DNA of 64,000 bases from contig NC_086097.1 in assembly GCF_963921235.1 (NCBI RefSeq), positions 168,332,001-168,396,000 on the forward strand, written 5' to 3'. The stretch is from Mobula hypostoma. Taxonomy: Eukaryota. This document shows, one piece after another, positions 46,347-61,384 of the stretch (position 1 is its first letter; each line of letters opens with the position of its first letter). The position numbers and the translations under genes are program-made. The notes below the pieces were generated by a model that was not told where the DNA came from, searched no databases, and saw only the letters and a list, made by a program, of their open reading frames with translations.

Positions 46347-49300
46347 AGATTTGAACTACTTCGGCATTTGACCAAACCATATTAAACACTATCAGACCCT
46401 AGATTCTGCGAATCAAAGTTCAAAATTAATTTATTATCAAAGTACATAAAAGTCATTCTGGAATACCAAAGTTCTTTTTTCAGATGACCTCCTCTTGTAG
46501 CATTGAGCCATCTCTATAGCACGCTTCAATTCACCTTAGCCACCAAGCTAAACTTCACCTAAGAAACTATCCCCTCTCATCGCCCAAAAGCTTATCCTGT
46601 GTGCAATTTAATTCTTCTTAAAACTTTGGCTTCACTTTTTTTGAGCTGAGAACTAGTTGACAAATTCTCAAATAATCTGTCATCCACCTCAAGTTCCTTC
46701 TCAAAACATTCAAGCACCATCCTTACAAATTCATCTGCTCTCTCATTTTCTTCGCCGTAAAACACATCATCAGTGATAAAGTTTAAGGAAATGGGGGATT
46801 CTCAGATTCCTGTAAACAATGGGTTAAGTACTGACTATGTCTGTGACTGCAGTGTGATTGAATAATGTCTCACAGCTGCTTTCTTTGGAGCAAGATAAGG
46901 ATTAACGTTCACCCAGATCCACATAAGATGTCTACTGGCTTTTCACACCTTTTGATTTTGACAAACGGCAGTACCTGATGGAAATTAGACAAGATTTCTT
47001 TAATTAAGGTGGCTGGACTGTCTATCAAACTGATTGTTCTTTTGTATCAATAGTCCATTGACTTGACTGGAATGGTTATCAAACTGATTGTTCTTTTGTA
47101 TTGGTGGCCTTATAACTTATAATTCTGACATCAGGCAGTGAACTTGTTGAACTGCTGGAGAGATGAGAACACTTCTCTCTCTGATGTCGGGTCCCAAGTT
47201 CACTCACCGGCTGAGCTCGAAGAAATAAATGGGTGAAAAAATGAGTAACAATCTTTTTGTGCCATCGAGATTTGATCCGGCACATTTACGTTTACATCAG
47301 CTCCTCAATAAATAATATTTATACAGCTGTATGCTTCTACCATGAAGGGTGAATGAATGGACAAAAACTTGATAAAGAAATTGTAAGGTTATGCACATCG
47401 GCAAGTGGAATCTTAAGGCAGGTAATTCTCTTAATGGAGAAAGATTGTAGATGTGTGAAGTACTGAGGGTTCTAGGTATTTTTGTGCAGGAATCCATTTG
47501 CAATCAGGCACAGCAAGCAGTTAGGAAGACAAATGACATGTTAGCCTTTATTGAAAGAAGGTTAGTATTCAAAAATATGGAGGTGTTTTTACAATTGTAC
47601 CAGGGTACCAGCAAGGACATAGCAGGAGTACTGCGCAGAGTCTTGCACAACTCAATTAAGAAATGACATACTGGTATTGGAGATGGTCGAAAAAGAAATT
47701 CACTGAGCTAATTCGTGGATAAGAGGGTTGTCATGTCATTTATTTAGCAACACACCGTGGAGTTGGCCCCTCTGGCCACATCATCCCAAAACTGCCTAAC
47801 CTAATCACAGGACAATTTACAATGACCAAGTAGAGTGGATAGCCAGCGCCTCTTCTCCAGGGCACCACTGCTCAATACAAGAGGACATGGCTTTAAGGTG
47901 AGGGGTGGGAAGTTCAAGGGGGATATTAGAGGAAGGTTTTTTACTCAGAGAGTGGCTGGTACATGGTATGCATTGCCTGAATCAGTGGTAGAGGCAGATA
48001 CACAAGTGAAATTTAAGAGACTACTAGACAAGTATATGGAGGAATTTAAGATGGGGGCTTATATGGGAGGCAGGGTTTGAGGGTAGGCATAACATTGTGG
48101 GCCGAAGGGCCTGTACTGTGCTGTACTATTCTATATTCTATGTTCAAGTAGCCTTCTGGTAGTCTTTGAACTGTGGGAGGAAACCGAAGCACATTGGAAA
48201 AACCCATGCATTACAGGTGGAGGATGTACAGACTCCTTAAAGAACAACGCCAGAATTAACTCTGAACTCCAGAATAGTCATAGTCATACTTCATTGATCC
48301 CGGGGGAAATTGGTTTTCGTTACAGTTGCACCATAAATAATAAATAGTAATAGAAATAATAATAGTAACACTACTATTAGTAAATAGTAATAGTCATGGA
48401 AATAATAAATCGTAATAGAATAGTAAAAGAAAAATAGTAATAAATAGTTAAATAGTAATATGTAATTTATGCCAGTAAATTATGAAATAAGTCCTGGACC
48501 AGCCTATCGGCTCAGGGTGTCTGACCCTCCAAGGGAGGAGTTGTAAAGTTTGATGGCCACGGGCAGGAATGACTTCATATGATGCTCTGTGCTGCATCTC
48601 GGAGGAATGAGTCTCTGGCTGAATGTACTCCTGTGCCCACCCAGTACATTATGTAGTGGATGGGAGACACTGACCAAGATGGCATGCAACTTAGACAGCA
48701 TCCTCTTTTCAGACACCACCGTGAGAGCGTCCAGTTCCATCCCCACAACATCAATGGCCTTACGAATGAGTTTGTTGATTCTGTTGGTGTCTGCTACCCT
48801 CAGCCTGCTGCCCCAGCACACAACAGTGGTGCCTACGTGTAGTAATTAAGTTAGACCCATATTCTTTGGCGTGTATAGAAAATCCTACAAAGTAGATGTA
48901 GAGATGTTTCCATATTGGCAGACTCCCAAGCAAGGGTTCATGCAGAATATTCTGATGATTAGCTTATCAACCATCTGAGAATCCTAGTGGTTTATCACAT
49001 GAATCAGCAGGTGATGTTTCCTTCACTCTCTTTCAAATCACCATGGCCCCAGCTCTAACACTCATTTTTGACTTACCAGGAACCACTTTCCCAAGCTCCC
49101 TTTAAAATGACCAAGGCTCCATTTCCCAACTCATTTAAAATTAAACGTACTGGGTTAATTGGGAAATTTATAATATTATGTAACATCTGAAAAATTAAAT
49201 TGAATAAAAAAAAGTGCAGGGGTAATAAATGGAAAAACAAACAATACTCCAGAAAATCTGCTTGTCCTGATCAAAGTCTTACAGCTGAAACAAGATAAGT

Positions 49301-50348
49301 GAGTGGGTGGTTATTTAAAACAGAGGTGTGCAGGAACATCTTGCAGAGAGTAGTAAACCTCTGGAAGAGGATTGAGATGGTTAAATCATTTAAGGCATTT
49401 CAATAGGAATATGATCAATTTTTGGAAAATTACACAATAGTGAGCTATGGGGAACTAACAAAGAAGAGCAGAAGCTAGCTGTCAGTTACATAAGCTTGAG
49501 GGAACAAATGACTATTCCTGATCTTTGTTTTTTATGTTACTACTTTGGAACTACTCCAACCAGGTTTTAAATCTCTTACTAACTCTTCCTTCAGTTAGTC
49601 CTGACAAAGGGTCTCAGCCTGAAACGTTGACTGTACCTCTTCCTAGAGATGCTGCCTGGCCTGCTGCATTCACCAGCAACTTTGATGTGTGTTGTTTCAC
49701 CACACAGCACAGGAACAGTCTATCATTTGTAACTGACAACTGATTCCCCTTCCTTGTTTGCAACCTATCTGCAGCCTGTAACAATAAACTACACTGCCTC
49801 CTCCACAGAATTTCCTTCTCCAACATCAACATCCTCTCTCAGGACTAAACGCTCAAGACTGAGACCCTAGTTAGATCAAGGTGGCACCGCTGCTCAGACT
49901 CTGTCATTCACAATCCTGACACCAGACTTCTGAAACAGAAATTATTCCAAACTCCCACAGAATAGGTCATCCAGAAGGCAGAGGAAAAGACTCAAGGATG
50001 TTCTCAAAACAACTTTGAAACTTGCAATATTCCTACTGACTCCTCTCGGTCCCTTGCCCACAATCACGCAAAGCACGAACAATACAGAGAACCTGAAGTC
50101 CATGCATCAGATCCACCATCTACTAAGTTGCTGACTGGGATGTTATACAATACACCAACGTCACTTACCAAGTGCAGAGGCCTAAACTCCACCGGGACCC
50201 GCCTGAGTCACATTGAGAAGGGGCGCTAACCTGAGAAGGTCGAGGTAAGGTGGAAGGAACGTGGAAGGAACGGGGAAGGAGTGAGGCGCAGGGCAGCGAG
50301 CCAGCCGGCCGGCTGAGCTACGGACACTGCTGTAAGTCCATCACTTAC

Positions 50349-50438
50349 CGGTCTCCAGGCTGGCCTGAAGTGCTGAGGGCCCAGGCTCATGCACAATCTC
50401 CGACAGCAACGGGCTACCAGGAAATAACGATGCGCCAT
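50349..50438 (-). CDS. AFG3L2: AFG3L2 coding exon 1 (MAHRYFLVARCCRRLCMSLGPQHFRPAWRP; mitochondrial presequence)
   Basis: ATG at 50438 in a CpG-rich region; MAHR start as in vertebrate AFG3L2; Arg-rich with no acidic residues; 90 nt, phase 0, followed by GTAAGT donor. Confidence 0.88.
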
Positions 50439-50650
50439 AACTCCTTTCGCTCTGAACTACCGAGGGCAATCAGTTACGGTGGCCAAAATCAGACTGAACC
50501 GTGGACATGGCCACAACGTCCCGATTCATTGCATCGCAGCTGTCATCAAGACCCGCTCGCGCTGGCGCCTGACGTCACGTAGTTGCCCCGCCTATGATGG
50601 CGTCACCCAGACTCGGTGACGTCACTGACCAACAAAACACCGGGTAAAGT
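50439..50650 (-). promoter_or_regulatory. AFG3L2 5'UTR and CpG-rich promoter
   Basis: CpG enrichment ~50170-50650; full CRE palindromes TGACGTCA at 50570-50577 and 50617-50624; TGGCGTCA at 50598-50605; GC box CCCCGCC at ~50586. Confidence 0.7.
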
Positions 50651-51459
50651 TTATCTGACTCCTCCGGATGGTTGACCATGTTCTTGCTTTTGTTCTGCCT
50701 GTGCCGCTGCTGCCTTCTGTGCCCATCATGTTGTCTTTGCATGTTTTTCACGCTTCTTTTCGTCGTCATTTATTTGCTCGATTCCTCTGCGTTCATAAAT
50801 CTGCCACCATATGGTGAAGTGCCATAACCTCCTCCACTCTCACTTCCGAGCTGTAGCAATTGTATTTTCACTGCAAAAGGTGAACCAAACTGTAGACCCA
50901 TTTAAAAAAGCAATTCAACCCCCCTAGAATGGATTTAATTTCAAATATGTTTGGAATCTGCTAGACAAATTAGGCTCAACTGAAATCAAAGCAAAACGCA
51001 CAAACTGCTGGAGGAACTCAGCAGGCTGAGCAGCATCTATGGGAAAAAAAAGTACGGTCGACGTTTTAGACCGCGACCCTTCGGCAGGACTGGAGAAAAG
51101 TAGTTGAGCAGATTTAAAAGATGGGGGAGGGATGAAGTAAAGAGCTGGGAAGTTGATTGGTGAAAGAGAAAGGGGAAATCTGATAGAAGAGGACAGAAAG
51201 CCATGGAAGAAAGAAGAGGGGGAGGAGCACCAGAAGAGGCAATGGCCGGGCAAGGAGATAAGGTGAGTGAGGGAAAAGGAGATGGGGAAAGGTGAAGGAG
51301 GGGTGGTGATTACCGGAAGTTCAAGAAATCATGTTCATCCCATCCGGTTGGAGGCTACCCAGATGGAATTCAAGGTGTTGTTACTCCAACCTAAGTGTGG
51401 CCTCATCACGACAGTGGAGGAGGAATGGAAATGGGAAGTGGAATTAAATGAGTGGCCAC

Positions 51460-53790
51460 TGTGGTGATATCACGTGTAAGAACGTGATTGGAGAGAGCTC
51501 TAAGCATGCGCAGAAATGATAGAATGATCTGGAACATGGCTTGGTAAAAACATGGTTTTGTTTTGTTGCTGTAAATAAAAGTTCTAATTCTTCCAGAATA
51601 TGATTGTTAACCCACGGTACGTATAAATATTAAGAACACAACATGGTGTCAGAAGTCGGTCTGGAAGAATAATATGTTCACTAACATGGGAGAAGCGAAG
51701 ATAATCGAAGAAAAAAGAGTTCAAACTGTTTTGGTGTTCGCTAACAGTTTTAAAAATGGAAGGTTTGCAACCTCCACTGACACTTCAGCTGACTGGGAAT
51801 GTAGCTGAGAACTGGAGAAAATTCAAGCAGTGTTTTGAAATATATTTATCGGCGATTGAAGCTGATAGAAAACCGGAAAAAACAAAAGCTGCGCTTCTAC
51901 TCCACATAATAGGTGATGACACAATTGAGGTATATAATCACTTTATTTTTGAAGATGGAGGTAATTTGAAATTGGAATCGATAATGGACAAATTTAAAGC
52001 ATACCGAAGCGTAATGTGACGTATGAAAGGCATAAATTTTTTACACGTGCGTAGAGAGCTGCTGAAACAATTGATCAATATATTATGGAGTTGAGACACA
52101 GGAGTAAATCATGCGAGTTTGCAGAACTGACAGACTCTCTCACTAAAGACAGAGTTGTTTGTGACATTTGGGATAATGGTGTGAGAGAAAGACTGTTAAG
52201 AGAACAAGATTTAGACAGCAAAAGCTTTGATGCTTTGCAAAGCTTCAGAAACCATGATGTCACGGGCTAAAGTGCTTTTCATTCAGAGCTGTGCTGTGAA
52301 AAAGTGCGAACATATTAGAATAAATAATAATACGACAACAAAACCGACAGAGAGCAAGACGTCATCTGAGAGAATTAAGCTATGTGATCGCTGTGGGCAG
52401 CATCGACCTAAACAGTGTCCAGCATATGGGAAAATGTGCAGCAACTGCGGTAACAGTAATAATTTTTCACTCTGTTGCAGAAGTAGAATGAAAATAAAAC
52501 AAGTAAACTCAGTGCTTGAAAATGAACTTGAGGAGTTTTATATAGATATGCTCTGTGAAAACAAAGTAAGAATGACTGGACTATTCCATTGCAAGTGAAC
52601 CAAAACAATATTCTGTTTGTGCTTGATACTGAAGCACAAGTAAATATTCTTGCAGAATCTGAGTTTAATGTATTAAAGCCAAGACCAAAGTTATATAAGA
52701 CAAATGTAAAAGTGACTGGGTATTCAGGTGCAGACATTCCAGTTAAAGGAACATGTGTGGTAAAAGTATCACACAAAAATATTGTGCACATGCTTTCATT
52801 TGTGGTGGTGCCAAAGAATGTACAGTCAATACTGGGTCTATCTGTCTGTGAGAGACTGAATTTGGTGAAAAGAGTCTTAGTCCTGGACAGTGACAGAGTC
52901 AGAATACAGTGACAGAATAGAATGGCTAGAAGTCATAAAGAAAACTCCCAGACCCATCCCTTTGTTACCAGCATCTGGCAAAGCATTGCCACCACAACCA
53001 GGAGTTGCAATTTTGCCCTCTGGAAGTAATGCACATGCATCAATGGGCCATGCATTCCATCACAATCTCACCTCTGCAGGAGGACAGAGGCCAAACTTGC
53101 CGGTACAGTACAATACTGATCTGAAGCCAAAGAATGACAAGAATCAGGATCCAATTGAAGAAGTGAAAGCACAAGTGAAGGAATTGAGAAGTGTTATTGA
53201 AATGATGAAGTCTCAGCATAAAAAAGAGATTACACAGTGAATGAATAAATTAGATGAAGAAAAGAAGATTCGTATTTCATTACAAGCGGAAGTGGAAGGA
53301 ATTAAGAAAGCTACAGTACTTGAAGAAGTACAACCCAGGTCATACATGGTCCAAACAGACGAAGGAGCAGTGTTAAGAAGAAATCACAAAGACCTAAAGA
53401 AAGAGCCAACTTCAGAGTTTTAGTTAACTGATGCAAACCAGACAAAACATGGAAATAACAACAAAACACAAGAACTGTGTGAACCACTTAGAAGGTCTCC
53501 TCGTGTTCGTAAACCCCAGAGAGACTGATAAAAACATGTTAAATTATGCGTTTGTTCTGGTTAATGTGGCTACTTGTTTCTGTTGTTAAGGAAAGGAAGA
53601 TGTGGTGATATCACGTGTAAGAACGTAATTGGAAAGGGTTCTGAGCATGCGCAGAAATGATAGAATGGTCTGGAACGTGGCTTGGTAAAAACGTAGTTTG
53701 GCTTTGTTGCTGTAAATAAAAGTTCTAATTCTTTCAGAATATGATTCTTTATTGTTAACCCACGGTACGTATAAATATAAGAACACAATA
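51460..53790 (+). mobile_element. Non-autonomous Gypsy LTR retrotransposon (gag, protease, captured segment, IN C-terminal tail)
   Basis: LTRs 51460-51643 and 53601-53790; 5-bp TSD GCCAC; PBS TGGTGTCAGAAGT (tRNA-Leu type) at 51644; PPT AAGGAAAGGAAGA at 53588-53600; gag GNVAENWRKFKQ; Cys knuckle CDRCG..H..CPAYGKMCSNCG; protease LDTEAQVNIL; IN tail PRSYMVQTDEGAVLRRN; several frameshifts. Confidence 0.93.
52914..53312 (+). pseudogene. SH3KBP1: Captured SH3KBP1/CIN85 C-terminal fragment (Pro-rich linker and coiled coil) inside the Gypsy element
   Basis: [52 protein letters not shown] versus recalled CIN85 [53 protein letters not shown]; upstream LPPQPG versus LPPKPG; one in-frame stop at 53238-53240. 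Confidence 0.85.
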
Positions 53791-54089
53791 GCCACTGGGA
53801 GATGTGCTCGGCGAAGCGACCTCCCAATCTACGTCGGATCTGACCAATATGCAGGAGGTCACACCAGGAGCACCGGACACAGTATATGACCCCAACAGAC
53901 TCACAGGTGAAGTGTCGCCTCACCAAAAGAACTGTTAATGGCCCTGAATGGTAGTGAGGAGGAGGTGTTGGGCAGGTGTAGCACTTGTTCCGTTTGCAAG
54001 GATAAGTGCCAGGAGGGAGATTAGTGGGGGGAGGGGAACAAATGGACAAGGGAGTCACGAAGGGAGCGTCCCTGTGGAAAGCAGAAAGG

Positions 54090-54163
<74 letters not shown>

Positions 54164-56109
54164 CGGGGGGGGCGCGGGGAGATGTACTTCGTGGTGGGAT
54201 CCTGTTGGAGATGGTGGAAGCTGAGGAGAATTATGTGCTGGACACAGAGGCTGGTGTGGTAGGTGAGGACAAGAGGAACCCTATCCCTGGTAGGGTGGTG
54301 AGAGGATGGGGTAAGAGCAGACGTGTGTGAAATGGAAGAGGTGTGGTTGAGGGCAGCGTTGATGGTGGAGGAAGAGGAAACCCCTCTCTTTGAAAAAGTA
54401 GGACATCTTCGATATGGAATGAAAAGCCTCATCCTGACAGCAAATACGGCGGAGACTGAGGAATTCAGGGAAGGGGATGGCATTTTTACAAGTGACAGGA
54501 TGGGAGGAGGTATAGTCCAGGTCCAAACAGTCCTTTCAGGTGAGGCGACACTTAACCTGTGAGTCTGTTGGGGCCATATACTGTGTTTGGTGCTCCCAGT
54601 GTGGCCTCCTGTATATCAGTGAGACCCGTCATAGATGGGAGACTGCTTTGCCAAGCACCTACACTCTGTCTGCCAGAAAAAGTGATATCTCCCAGTGACC
54701 ACCAATTTTAATTCCACTTTCCATGTCTAATCATGGCCGTCTCCACTGTCGTGATGAGGCTACACTTAGGGTGGAATAATAACACCTTATATTCCGTCTG
54801 GGTAGCCTCCAACCTGATGGCATGAACATTGATTTCTGGAACTTCTGGTAGTGACCCTTCACCTTTCCCCATCTCCGTTTCCCTCTCTCACCTTATTTCC
54901 TTGCACTCCAATTCCCTCCCTCTGGTGCTTCCCCCCCCCCACTTTCTCCCATGGCCTTCTGTCCTCTTCTATCATACTCTCCCTTCTCCAGCCTTGTATC
55001 TCTTTCACCAATTTCCAAGCTTTTTACTTATCGCTCCCCCTTCAGGTTTCATATATCACCCTTTGTTTCCCTTGTCTACCGCTCCCCCCACTTTTTAAAT
55101 CTACTCCTCAGCCTTTTCTCCAATCCTGCCGAAGGGACTCGATCCGAAACGCCAATTGTACTCTTTTCCATAGATGCTGCCTGGCCTGCTGTGTTCCTCC
55201 AGCAGTTTGTGTGTGTTGCTTGTATTTCCAGCATCTGCAGATTTTCTCATTTTTCAACTGAAAACAAGCCCACTTCTTCAATAAAGTTTGCACGTACAGT
55301 GTAAGCGGGGCAAAATACTCTCAGCAAGTTACTAACAGGTACTTTGAAATTAACCAATAGATCTTTGGACTGTAGAAGGAGACTGGAGCACCCGAAGAAA
55401 CCCATGCATTCAATGGAGAGGACAAACAGACTCCTTACGGATGACGTTGGAATTGAACTCCAATGCCCTGAGCCGTAATCGCGTCTCGCTAACCACTGCG
55501 CTAATGTGACATGAATCTTGTGTTGGTCTGTTTTAGCTCTCGTTTCCATTTAGATTAATATTTCAAATAAATGTTTCATCAAAACTACAGAAGTATGTGA
55601 AACAGCTTTAAAAATAATGATTGACTTTCATATGAAATAACCATAAATGCTTTCATTAAGATGGAAATTTCAAAAATGATAGATAATGGTCAAATACTGA
55701 TTTTTAGCATTGTGTTCTATGGAAGTCAAATTACTAACATATCATTACCTGAGTTTCTCAGGAGTTTTTTTTTAATCCAGGTGTTAATCCTTGCATATAT
55801 AAAAAAGTAGTCTTGACATCCTTGTACCTGTGTTTCCTTGTATCACTACTTTGTTAAATGGTGCTAGGATTCAATTTTACCTGAGCCACCAAGTAACTTA
55901 TTAGACTCAGAATGAAGGTTTAGCTAACATAGTGATGAACTATGAGGCAAAAAGGTCAATTTGAAAGTGAAAAACAAAAACGTAGATGCAGATAGGCACA
56001 ATATTAAAATACAGAAAGTGAGGAGAAAGAATAAAGATAAAGCATCCCAAAAATTGGATAGAGGATAGGAATTTCACTGCAGGGCAGGAGACAATGTTAA
56101 TGAAATGAT

Positions 56110-57055
56110 CTTTGAAGAAATAACAGGCAGAACAGAGACTCTGTGGATGTTGTTTATTTGGATTTTTAGAAGGCCTTTGACAAGGTGTCTCATATGAGAC
56201 TGCTTAAAAAGATAAGAGCCCATGGTATTAAAGTAAAGATGTGTGTGTGTGCCCTTAAGTCCTGGTGGAGTTGTCGGGGCACCATCATGACAAGCTTTCT
56301 GGTATGCTCATCGTACGGTGTGTCTTGGGCATCTGAAACCTGGTGGAGCCCATCCCTCTTCAGGTTTTTTTTTACGAGGTCGAGTTATTAGCTTGACACT
56401 CAACCCAGGCACAGATGGAGAACTAGGGACCTCTCGCCCCGAAGTCCAGTGCTAATGCCACTATGCCACCAGCTAGCCAGGTAAAGATATTAGCATGGAA
56501 AGAGATTGACCAAATGGCAGGAGGCCAATGGTAGGAATAAAGGGGTCTTTACTGAGTGGCTGCTAGTGATTAGTGGTGTGCCATCGGGGTCAGTGTAGGG
56601 ACTGCTTCTTCTCACGTTATGTCAATGATATCGAAGAAGCAATTGATGGATTTGTGACCAAGTTTGCAGACGAAAGAAAGATAGGTGGAAGGGCAGGTGG
56701 TGTTGAAGAAGCAGGGTGTCTGCAGAAAGACTGAGACAAATTGGAAGAATGGACAAAGAAGTGGCAGATGGAATAATGCTGAGGGAAGTGCATGGTGATG
56801 CACTTTGGTAGAAGGAATAAAAGTGTGGACTATTCAAAATGGGGAGAAAATTCAAAACTATGAGATGCAAAGGGACTTGGGAGTCCTTGTGCAGGATTCC
56901 CTAAAGGTTAACTTGCAGATTGAGTCAGCGGTAAGGAAGACTAATGCAATGTTAACATTCATTTCGAGAGGACTAGAATACAAAAGCAAGGATATGATGC
57001 TGAGGCTTCATAAGCCAATAGTCAGACCGCACTTGGTGTATTGTGAGAAATAGGG
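56110..57055 (+). mobile_element. CR1 RT fragment
   Basis: LDF*KAFDKV; QRDLGVLVQDSLKV; VRPHL. Confidence 0.8.
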
Positions 57056-58919: not shown

Positions 58920-61384
58920 GATTAGATTACGAGGATACCCAGTCCTCGTTTATTGTCATTTAGAAATGCATGCATTAAAAAACGATACAATTTTCCTCCA
59001 AAATGATATCACAAAAAAAGGACAAACCAAGACTAAAACTGATGAAATCACATAATTATAACATATAGTTACAACAATACAAAGCAATACCATAATTTGA
59101 AAAAGAGCTTGATAAAGAGCAGACCATGGGCATGGTAAAAAAAAGTCTCAAAGTCCCGATCGACTCATCATCTTTTTTTTTTTAAATCTTTTTATTGAGT
59201 AAGTATACAAAAAAGGTAAACCATATAAACATTAATACAATGTTAAAGTATAATAAAATTCCAAAAGATAACAATACCAAAAAGAAAATACTACAATGTA
59301 ATTTAAGCATAAGAAACCAAGATAACATAATAGTTTACTAAATTTTATATATATCAATGGAAAAAAAGAAAAAAAAACCCCAAAAAAAACCCACCGTGCA
59401 ACTAACTAAAAGCAAGGCAAAGCAATGGGCTAACTTGAAACCAAACAGAGTTAAACTTAAAATCACGTCCTCAATCCCGACCTCCATTAAAACAGTGAAA
59501 AAAAAACAAGAAGGGTAAATATTACATTAAATGAAAATATCGAATAAAAGGTCCCCAAATCTGTTCAAATTTAAATGAAGAATCATAAAGGTTACTTCTA
59601 ATTTTCTCCAGATTCAAACATAAAATCGTCTGAGAAAACCAAAAAAAGGTAGTTGGGGCATTAAGCTCTTTCCAATGTTGTAAAATACATCTTTTCGCCA
59701 TTAAAGTAAGAAATGCAATCATTCTACGGGCTGAAGGGGAAAGATTACTAGAAATTTTAGGTAGTCCAAAGATAGCAGTAATAGAAGCAAAACATTTATA
59801 AAATTCAACGGTAAATCCATCAGGGCCAGGAGCTTTCCCCAGATTCATAGAAAAAATAACATTCTTAATCTCATCCATTGTAATGGAAGTATCTAATAAA
59901 GAAGACATATCCCGTGAAATCTGAGGGAAGTCTAACTTATCTAAAAAATCATTCATATATTTAGAATCTCGAGGAGACTCTGATTGATATAAAGAAGAAT
60001 AAAAATCACAAAAGGTTTGATTAATCCCCACATGATCCAATATCAATCGATCATTTTGGTTATAAATCTGATTGATTTGAGATTTAACATAATTAGATTT
60101 CAATTGATTAGCCAGCAGCTTGCCAATTTTATCACTGTGAACATAAAAATCACTTCTTGTTTTCTTTAATTGGTTTACAATCGAGGACGAGAGTAGTAAA
60201 CTGTGTTCCATTTGAAGTTCAGTTCTTTGTTTGTATAGCTCCTCAGAAGGAGCCATAACATATTTCTTATCAATTTCTTTAATCTTGTCCACAATTGCCA
60301 TCTCCTCCTGCTTCTGTTTCTTCCTCAAAGCAACGGAATACGAAATAATCTGACCCCGAATATAGGCTTTAAAAGTGTCCCAAAGAGTGTTAACCGAAAT
60401 ATCTTCTGTATAGTTAATTGTAAAAAAAAGCTCAATCTGTTCATTCATAAAATTAACAAAGTCTGAGTCCTGAAGCAACAACGAATTAAAACGCCATTGT
60501 CTATTGTTTGGTATATTGGCCATAATTTTAATAGAAAGCTTAAGTGGAGCATGATCCGAAATGGTTATAGAATCATAATCACATTTAATCACTGAAGGAA
60601 TGAGACGAGAATCAATGAAAAAATAATCAATTCTTGAATAGGAATGATGAACATGTGAAAAGAAGGAAAAATCTTTTTCCTGAGGATGCAGAAAACGCCA
60701 AATGTCTGTCGACCCAGAATCAGAAAGGAAAAAATTAATCAAATTTGCAGATTTATTAGGTAAAGTCCGTAAAGGAGCCGAACGGTCCAAAGCTGGAGAT
60801 AAACAGGTATTAAGATCTCCGCCCCAAATCAATGAAAACTCGTTCAAATTCGGAAACTGATCAAACAATGATTTATAAAATTCCGGACAATCCATATTAG
60901 GAGCATAAACATTAACCAAAACTACTTTTTTATTAAATAGTAAACCACTAACCAATAAAAATCTACCATTCGGATCAGAGATAATATCCTGGACTCATCA
61001 TCTAACGCAGGCAGCAGAAGGGAGAAACTCTCCCTGCCATGAACCTCCAAGCACCAACAACTTGCCAATGCATCGGAAGCACCTGACCGCAGCCGACTCT
61101 GAGTCTGTCTGAAAACTTCGAGCCCCTGACCAGCCCCTCCGATACAGCCTCTCCGAGCACCATCCTCTGCCGAGCGCTTCGAACCCGCCCCGGCTGCCGA
61201 GCAACAAGCAAAGCCGAGGACTCGGGGCCTTCTCCTCCAGAGATTCCGGACCACACAGTAGCAGCAGCAGCGAAGCAGGCATTTCAGAAGTTTCTCCAGA
61301 TGTTCCTCCGTGCTCTCACGTCCGTCTCCATCAAATCAGGATTGTGCATGGCACCCTACTTGACAAACAACAGACATTATATTA
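58920..61384 (-). mobile_element. SINE-like non-autonomous retroposon with (TCTAA)n tail, split by the L1
   Basis: TSD AATATTA within a CR1; same family as the copy at 16251-16874. Confidence 0.65.
59174..60991 (-). mobile_element. 5'-truncated L1 with internal in-frame deletion of RT; open 477-codon ORF 59522-60955
   Basis: TSD GACTCATCATCT; poly(T) and TTTATT at the left end; EN NVYAPN, GGDLN, SRIDYF, SDH; KAPGPDGFTVEFYK joined directly to the ORF2 C-terminal AIFGLP...AKRCILQHWK. Confidence 0.9.

Follow-up and report, generated by a model that had tools for sequence, protein, structure and literature searches.

What becomes of a long terminal repeat (LTR) retrotransposon that has exchanged most of its enzymes for a piece of a host message, and does the passenger itself contribute to its spread? 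This question is raised by a Gypsy-type element of 2331 bp (51460–53790; LTRs of 184 and 190 nt) in the window, i.e., the whole stretch of 64,000 nucleotides from Mobula hypostoma that was analysed here. The preliminary description had recognized a Gypsy element with both LTRs, a target-site duplication (TSD), a primer-binding site (PBS) and a polypurine tract (PPT), all of which were located (Table 1). It further held that the protease passes directly into an insert at 52914–53312, derived from the C-terminus of SH3KBP1/CIN85, before the element resumes in the integrase tail. A host-derived block is indeed present, with true limits at 52929–53311, and most of the reverse transcriptase (RT)-RNase H-integrase core is gone, but the passage from the protease is less direct than described, as 52914–52928 is a remnant of the RT start. 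The integrase tail resumes as stated, in frame with the cargo.

Table 1. Parts of the Gypsy-type element and of its SH3KBP1 cargo (positions in the window)
Feature	Position	Strand	Remarks
Left target-site duplication GCCAC	51455..51459	.	Identical to right TSD
5' LTR (TG...CA)	51460..51643	+	K2P 0.076 vs 3' LTR
Primer-binding site TGGTGTCAGAAGT	51644..51657	+	Same position in 8 other full-length copies
gag, interrupted by stops and frameshifts	51756..52558	+	Two terminal Cys/His zinc-knuckle-like motifs
Aspartic protease	52559..52900	+	Pfam PF13975 E 2.7e-6, PF13650 E 2.3e-5; triad altered here
Protease-RT linker and RT-start remnant	52901..52928	+	Shortened by in-frame 150-nt deletion at 52910-52913
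SH3KBP1 cargo, 3' part of first exon taken	52929..52970	+	Host G000:C18:80902168-80902210
Left cargo junction microhomology GTCATAAA	At start of 52929..52970	+	Cargo vs parent comparison
SH3KBP1 cargo, whole 251-nt exon	52971..53221	+	Host C18:80906391-80906641, 97%; encodes Pro-rich linker and coiled-coil start
SH3KBP1 cargo, whole 64-nt exon, coiled coil	53222..53285	+	Host C18:80907729-80907792, 97%
SH3KBP1 cargo, 5' part of last coding exon	53286..53311	+	Host C18:80909830-80909855
Right cargo junction microhomology AGAAAGC	At end of 53286..53311	+	Cargo vs parent comparison
Integrase C-terminal tail, frame continuous with cargo	53312..53530	+	Matches P0152 1223-1256
Polypurine tract	53588..53600	+	Ahead of 3' LTR
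3' LTR	53601..53790	+	Pairs with 51460..51643
Right target-site duplication GCCAC	53791..53795	.	Identical to left TSD

The reference for the missing parts is P0152, a single-ORF Gag-Pol protein of 1327 aa with the Pfam order protease (PR)-RT-RNase H (RH)-integrase (IN), to which the window's gag could be aligned with tblastn over residues 6–158 (E 7e-41) and 224–288 (E 3e-40). The window copy as a whole matches P0152 over residues 6–404 and then again only from 1223, with no match to residues ~405–1222, i.e., the RT-RNase H-integrase core, and there is no space for an env gene between the integrase tail and the PPT. The PBS TGGTGTCAGAAGT presumably fits a Leu tRNA; the window has no tRNA gene. 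The two LTRs differ at 13 of 183 aligned bases, and the last bases of the 3' LTR are ATA here vs CA in 7 of 8 other full copies. The protease active-site triad is intact in 28 of the 34 copies in which the motif was found (41 examined), and the 150-nt in-frame deletion before the cargo is common to 22 of 41. A stop within the cargo (53238–53240), frameshifts in gag and after the protease, and the altered triad mean that the window copy is now unable to make a fusion protein; with its stops and frameshifts, it also lacks the intact frame under purifying selection at one locus that marks a domesticated gene.

The element is nested in an older repeat (50982–51459 and 53791–53924) that has an inverted partner 0.7 kb downstream (54539–55228; arms 83–90% complementary). 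Elsewhere in the window, an open frame of 490 codons (59522–60994, + strand) presumably represents the endonuclease and RT start of an L1-like LINE, and we take three further stretches (47826–48080, 48504–48845 and 56100–57050) to be remnants resembling the ends of non-LTR retrotransposons. A GC- and CpG-rich stretch at 50180–50660 with two TGACGTCA motifs is perhaps a promoter or a LINE leader.

The identity of the cargo agrees with the earlier reading. In the Protein Data Bank (PDB), it matched the human SH3KBP1 coiled-coil chains 5abs_A and 2n64_A (E 2e-14) and was 93% like a solved trimer-forming chain, and it shared 93% identity with ray SH3KBP1 over 96% of the query (E 1e-68), while no Pfam model was significant for it. 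Of 370 candidates in the protein search, 23 were hits; names or domains identify 21 as SH3KBP1, as had been predicted, and the other two are chimeras. This likeness marks the animal as a myliobatiform ray. Alignment to the single SH3KBP1 gene of the genome (G000:C18:80.84–80.91 Mb) places 52929–53311 on four host exons at 95–100% identity, so that 7.7 kb of genomic sequence is condensed to 384 nt with three GT-AG introns removed to the base; the anticipated crossing of exon-exon junctions, free of introns, was thus found three times. Neither outcome that the preliminary description had set against itself, i.e., Gypsy ORFs as best hits or a match that includes introns, was observed. All three exon joints are present in each of the 41 distinct copies that remain after 17 repeats and two local duplicates of the window copy are subtracted from the 60 loci fetched. 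Mean divergence of the cargo from the host is 3.4% in the sample of top hits.

The edges of the cargo are equally informative about how a spliced message came to lie inside the element. At the left join, the parent (AGGAGTCATAAAAAAA) and the host (GATGTCATAAAGAAA) have 8 nt in common, or 9 nt with an older Glu codon that is retained in 35 of 41 copies, and at the right join, the parent (CACAGAAAGCTACA) and the host (TTAAGAAAGCACTT) share 7 nt, the donor side of both joins having been read from natural parent copies. Judged from their letters, both joins carry the signature of template switching as given in the accessible text of Tan et al. 2016 (PMC5131818), and the proposed capture of spliced mRNA is upheld by this microhomology together with the exact removal of the introns. 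The cargo ends five codons ahead of the host stop, has neither a UTR nor a poly(A), and is flanked by no TSD or poly(A) of its own; the sequence of the element is replaced, not interrupted. We consider the chance negligible that the block is instead a LINE-made processed pseudogene, an inserted DNA fragment or an assembly error: two near-identical local duplicates of the window copy, one of which adjoins an assembly gap, could be read in that direction, but there is no poly(A), 3' UTR or duplication around the cargo, and identical joins stand on many contigs and in proteins of two other genera. The exact exon joints, the junction copies and the microhomologies rule these origins out.

The chimera spread as a family, as had been foreseen. 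A DNA search returned 446 candidates, of which 40 were scored, all nearly full length and 93–100% identical, and the right junction alone has 103 genome-wide matches at ≤2 mismatches (control, 0), so at least 103 copies share it. Eight other full-length copies lie in different flanks, have LTR divergences (K2P) of 0.061–0.124, and carry TSDs that are exact in three cases, one mismatch off in three and not clear in two. Two near-identical duplicates of the window element plus its flanks (L001 and L003, G000:C1:168,423,264–168,431,705) were seen 40–45 kb away, one of them in inverted orientation and running up to an assembly gap next to a CCG repeat, which may reflect a real duplication or an assembly error; as they share the site of the window copy, they are duplications and not insertions. 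The integrase tail alone has 242 genome matches, and 20 tail sites without the right junction comprised 14 with native integrase upstream, two with RABEP1, one with the SH3KBP1 coiled coil alone, and three that were truncated or interrupted. A parent family that has RT, RNase H and integrase thus stands beside the chimera, its order of protease, RT, RNase H and integrase having been read from L115 and L073, which come from one parent locus, and from the relative P0152.

Relatives of the chimera are also found outside Mobula. The Hemitrygon protein XP_072897951 has both joins of the window chimera, and on such sequence matches, the family is common to three ray genera; six organisms contain the stretch in DNA or unlabelled runs (shares 0.29–0.39), and two metatranscriptome entries have small shares. 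The cargo carries Met-Gly as in Mobula and Hemitrygon where the sawfish has Thr-Val, keeps Glu (35 of 41 copies) where present-day Mobula has Asp, and keeps three residues that are missing from Hemitrygon SH3KBP1. These residues fit a single capture, probably after the split from sawfish and before that between devil rays and stingrays.

SH3KBP1 is not the only passenger. In Hemitrygon XP_072880776 and Hypanus XP_059819315, the element protease is joined to RABEP1 and the SH3KBP1 coiled coil; three Hemitrygon and Hypanus gene models (P0004, P0023 and P0044) are these chimeras, one titled ‘rab GTPase-binding effector protein 1-like’ and two uncharacterised. CIN85 and Rabaptin-5 are both endocytic adaptors. 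The RABEP1 piece gave 150 scored matches of 260 candidates, one of them the host exon, which leaves about 149, and consists of two exons lying 9 kb apart with one exon joint between them. A third cargo matches skate SLU7 (E 5e-15), with its host gene on C21, has 91 matches at about 87 loci, and spans two exon joints, the exon behind the second being outside the comparison; it had no hit in the ESM Atlas and only one of E 0.096, to human SLU7, in the PDB. All three cargos lie in sense, each in its own frame. Two candidate assignments were rejected. The class of lower identity does not stem from a second RABEP paralogue, but contains less of the one RABEP1, joined to gag, and C66:6507788–6508767, considered as the source gene of the third cargo, turned out to be a further copy, interrupted by an insertion. 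As side observations, the host SLU7 exon at L123 (G000:C21:67,583,310) has a GC donor at its end, the leader of the mini element L125 jumps to the SLU7 piece, and a Narcine RABEP1 isoform model (P0035) ends in a LINE-like reverse transcriptase piece (PF00078).

The cargos have also been combined with each other. Among 18 RABEP1 loci and 20 SLU7 loci fetched, we found mosaics of the classes RT-RABEP1-IN, PR-RABEP1-SH3KBP1-RABEP1-IN, Gag-RABEP1-SH3KBP1-IN and Gag-RABEP1-SH3KBP1-SLU7-tail. The gag and LTR of the last, triple class are only about 75% like those of the window, and subfamilies must therefore have recombined as well. The mosaics drop the Pro-rich linker and keep the coiled coil of SH3KBP1, the window in which that protein is richest in E/K/Q/R, and the parts kept in them have a purine content of 65–69% vs 53–58% in the element, a richness that fits both easier template switching and a taste for charged helices.

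Whether the joins respect the reading frame was read from the 82 top-ranked loci, a list that is no genome-wide census and in whose ranking the frame of the joins played no part. All 15 large junctions found in at least two of these loci keep the frame. With motif counts that allow four mismatches, they are RT-SH3 (about 31 loci), PR-SH3 (5), SH3-IN (45), RT-RABEP1 (2), PR-RABEP1 (8), RABEP1-IN (8), RABEP1-SH3 (33), SH3-RABEP1 (4), gag-RABEP1 (24), IN-SLU7 (24) and SLU7-IN (23), together with two 150-nt deletions (22 and 2) and a pair of deletions within the integrase tail (24 and 5). Among indels of ≥6 nt confined to one copy, by comparison, the frame survives in 17 of 40 cases (Fisher p 5e-5), and words of 3–8 nt shared between the donors are in frame in 37–50% (65% in one small class). 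Even when two or three shared small frameshifts are counted in, the ratio is 15/17 or 15/18 (p 0.001–0.004). In 12 of 41 copies, one nucleotide is missing five codons ahead of the right junction; 6 of 41 have gained one nucleotide within a run of A; and in 2 to 4 of 41, 10 nt have been lost close to where the frame ends. The 12 copies with the 1-nt deletion belong to all left-junction classes and are not grouped on the tree, and the change may therefore be recurrent or shuffled by recombination; at this deletion (equivalent to 53292–53296 of the window), the end of the coiled coil then reads like an earlier word of the same cargo. Seven loci (L076, L085, L089, L099, L100, L107 and L108) have further junctions or deletions, each seen in one sampled copy and in frame by eye.

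That every large shared join is in frame suggests that the passengers could spread only if they were translatable. Weak support for selection on the frame comes from L027 (G000:C64:61,394,458; one genome match), which has both LTRs but no gag, its PBS being joined to the end of the protease. The contrary reading, that the cargos are neutral filler whose frames were fortunate, because purine-rich coding words share the frame in more than one third of cases and shorter elements are copied better, seems improbable to us. It would account for shared words that are in frame in up to half of cases, for the frameshift near the end of the cargo, and for a star-like tree and an omega of about 1 (see below), and in the accessible part of a study of cattle (PMC10924933), non-autonomous D-type elements without intact frames dominate new insertions. 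Against it stand the sense orientation and native frame of all three cargos, and the chance of obtaining 15 of 15 joins in frame, which is 3e-5 if each has a 50% probability of being so and 5e-4 at 60%; for 15 of 18, the values are 0.004 and 0.03.

A translatable frame does not imply that the translated cargo is of use. Relative to the host exons, single-copy changes in the 41 copies amount to 165 non-synonymous, 45 synonymous and five stops (omega 1.1). The SH3KBP1 class has only two near-fixed changes, both synonymous, and the tree of the 3' half of the 41 copies is star-like and mostly unresolved, which points to a burst soon after capture, so that the changes in this class are hardly informative on selection. 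Changes that reach a frequency of ≥25% in the triple class comprise 15 non-synonymous and 6 synonymous, vs a neutral expectation of 14.8 and 5.1, and no stops vs 1.1 expected, a count in which the SLU7 part was not polarised against host change. No purifying selection on the cargo codons was found (omega about 1) in these comparisons of low power, and a use of the oligomerising or membrane-binding activity that the preliminary description ascribes to the coiled coil gains no support from them.

Nonetheless, the nature of the cargos invites the thought that the element profits from the protein they encode. Placed after the protease or the nucleocapsid, a host coiled coil might stand in for RT and integrase as multimerising modules and aid the assembly of Gag, the activation of the protease or the capture of helper particles, with the lysine run of SLU7 as a basic patch. 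In its boldest form, a Gypsy family would have swapped pol for the coiled coils of CIN85 and Rabaptin-5 and the basic tail of SLU7, all fused to Gag in one frame, yielding an oligomerising rod that out-competes the helper for particle assembly. We regard the general idea as possible though unlikely and this specific version as similarly doubtful; if it were true, the Gypsy elements of rays would amount to a repeated experiment of nature in selecting which host domains can take the place of Pol. Two of the three cargos are coiled coils, the mosaics retain that of SH3KBP1 and not the Pro-rich linker, and in one natural triple copy, RABEP1 and SH3KBP1 were modelled by AlphaFold from a single sequence as one continuous helix of 121 residues (pLDDT >90 for about 80), a weak point as charged sequences readily adopt this fold. 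When a leucine zipper is placed after the HIV-1 protease, Gag-PR multimerisation and cleavage rise but particle yield falls, according to the available portion of that report (PMC3291649). The shared changes in the mosaics match the neutral expectation, moreover, the captured RABEP1 part is unremarkable (46th percentile), RABEP1 being coiled coil nearly throughout, and purine richness accounts for the same bias via easier template switching.

It is highly improbable that the host keeps the chimeras for purposes of its own, e.g., to interfere with CIN85 and Rabaptin-5 through dominant-negative fragments, to restrict the parent element or to supply small RNA. Gene models do exist at three such loci in Hemitrygon and Hypanus, and 20 of the 41 copies have no stop across the cargo; however, the copies decay neutrally, that in the window is broken, and they were chosen by similarity, which favours open ones. 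In four runs that we guess to be RNA, the cargo is covered by host SH3KBP1 mRNA, with loose ends at 52928 and 53311 that enter host exons, and short pieces of the element, 85–95% alike, that may be DNA; none of the 32 pieces (of 636) from runs guessed to be RNA spans a chimeric junction.

We therefore favour a reading in which template-switch capture was followed by amplification in trans and by selection for a translatable frame, to which we assign a probability of roughly 0.6. In an ancestor of stingrays and devil rays, the RT of a single-ORF Gypsy element would have jumped, probably within the particle, from the element RNA to an SH3KBP1 mRNA packaged with it and then returned, each time at a short word common to both, so that RT, RNase H and most of the integrase were exchanged for 384 nt of spliced host message. 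The chimera, retaining its LTRs, PBS, PPT, gag and protease, would then have been copied to many sites by the enzymes of the intact parent. The family also took up RABEP1 and SLU7 mRNA, presumably in a like manner. Recombination between co-packaged RNAs would have stitched the three cargos together while the protease and linkers were trimmed. We infer that derivatives spread only if ribosomes could read a path from gag through the cargo, perhaps because the Gag fusion that an RNA encodes, or its translation as such, helps that RNA in cis to be packaged or to remain stable. The cargo would serve mainly as an open, purine-rich spacer whose amino-acid sequence may not matter, and the window copy has meanwhile decayed.

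The benefit in cis, which we propose from the frames, would have a precedent in the mouse IAP 1Delta1 elements, for which Saito et al. 2008 is reportedly the primary paper. As far as the accessible text of two later sources goes (PMC6466679, PMC7411935), these elements have a Gag-Pol fusion in frame to which an action in cis is attributed, enzymes being required in trans, and, like the ray chimera, they are non-autonomous and have lost internal sequence in a way that keeps the Gag fusion in frame. IAP 1Delta1 is, however, as these portions describe it, a plain deletion in a betaretrovirus-like element, whereas in the ray, the gap of a Gypsy element was filled with host mRNA and action in cis is deduced from the frames. 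The bovine D-type elements, which spread without intact frames, argue against a general cis rule in the part of that study available (PMC10924933). Whether non-autonomous LTR elements depend on translation in cis, a requirement so far tied to IAP 1Delta1, can be tested across a whole genome by means of the junction frames in rays.

The preliminary description had likened the chimera to the transduction of oncogenes by retroviruses. Acutely transforming retroviruses capture host mRNA in frame with gag and depend on a helper; the likeness holds for the mechanism, but the ray chimera has no env, gives no sign of selection on the cargo protein and is known from germ-line copies only. In layout, we take the ray family to resemble Mag/Steamer Gypsy elements. 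Steamer-like elements, in the accessible text (PMC11046912), share with the ray family LTRs of about 185 nt and with its relative P0152 a single Gag-Pol frame of ~1300 residues in the order PR-RT-RH-IN, but no host cargo is described for them there.

No description of the ray family was found in the literature searched, most subscription papers and supplements being outside that search; the consulted main text of the manta and devil ray genome preprint does not mention SH3KBP1, RABEP1 or SUDS3, and the passages on retrocopies available from the VGP preprint do not name the family. The closest counterparts are the animal LTR-mediated retrocopies in the accessible text of Tan et al. 2016 (PMC5131818), in which partial spliced mRNA replaces internal ORFs. 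These and the ray family have in common microsimilarity at both joins, a bias for sense and in-frame capture, repeated retroposition and multi-gene chimeras, such as the mouse ‘Super’ retrocopy with four genes (PMC5131818), and the window's family likewise has no introns, a replaced internal ORF, microsimilarity and further rounds of retroposition. The retrocopies described in that text, however, are single loci or few copies, whereas the ray family has at least 103 copies of one junction, three cargos recombined into one gag-continuous frame, and a distribution over three genera. Maize Bs1, an LTR element with exonic pieces of three genes and identical switch points in all copies, is comparable as summarized there (PMC5131818), but has one to five copies vs tens to hundreds in the ray, where simple and mosaic stages occur in one genome. 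From the parts of these sources at hand, the kind of event is thus already known from the retrocopies of Tan et al., from Bs1 and from the four-gene mouse retrocopy, and what is new is the scale, the serial capture into one frame and a frame bias that can be counted. LTR-mediated gene capture is known from single loci, whereas in the ray, parent, single, double and triple stages coexist in tens to hundreds of copies, so that the rules of capture themselves become countable. The ray chimeras also contribute heavily to exon shuffling and to erroneous gene models.
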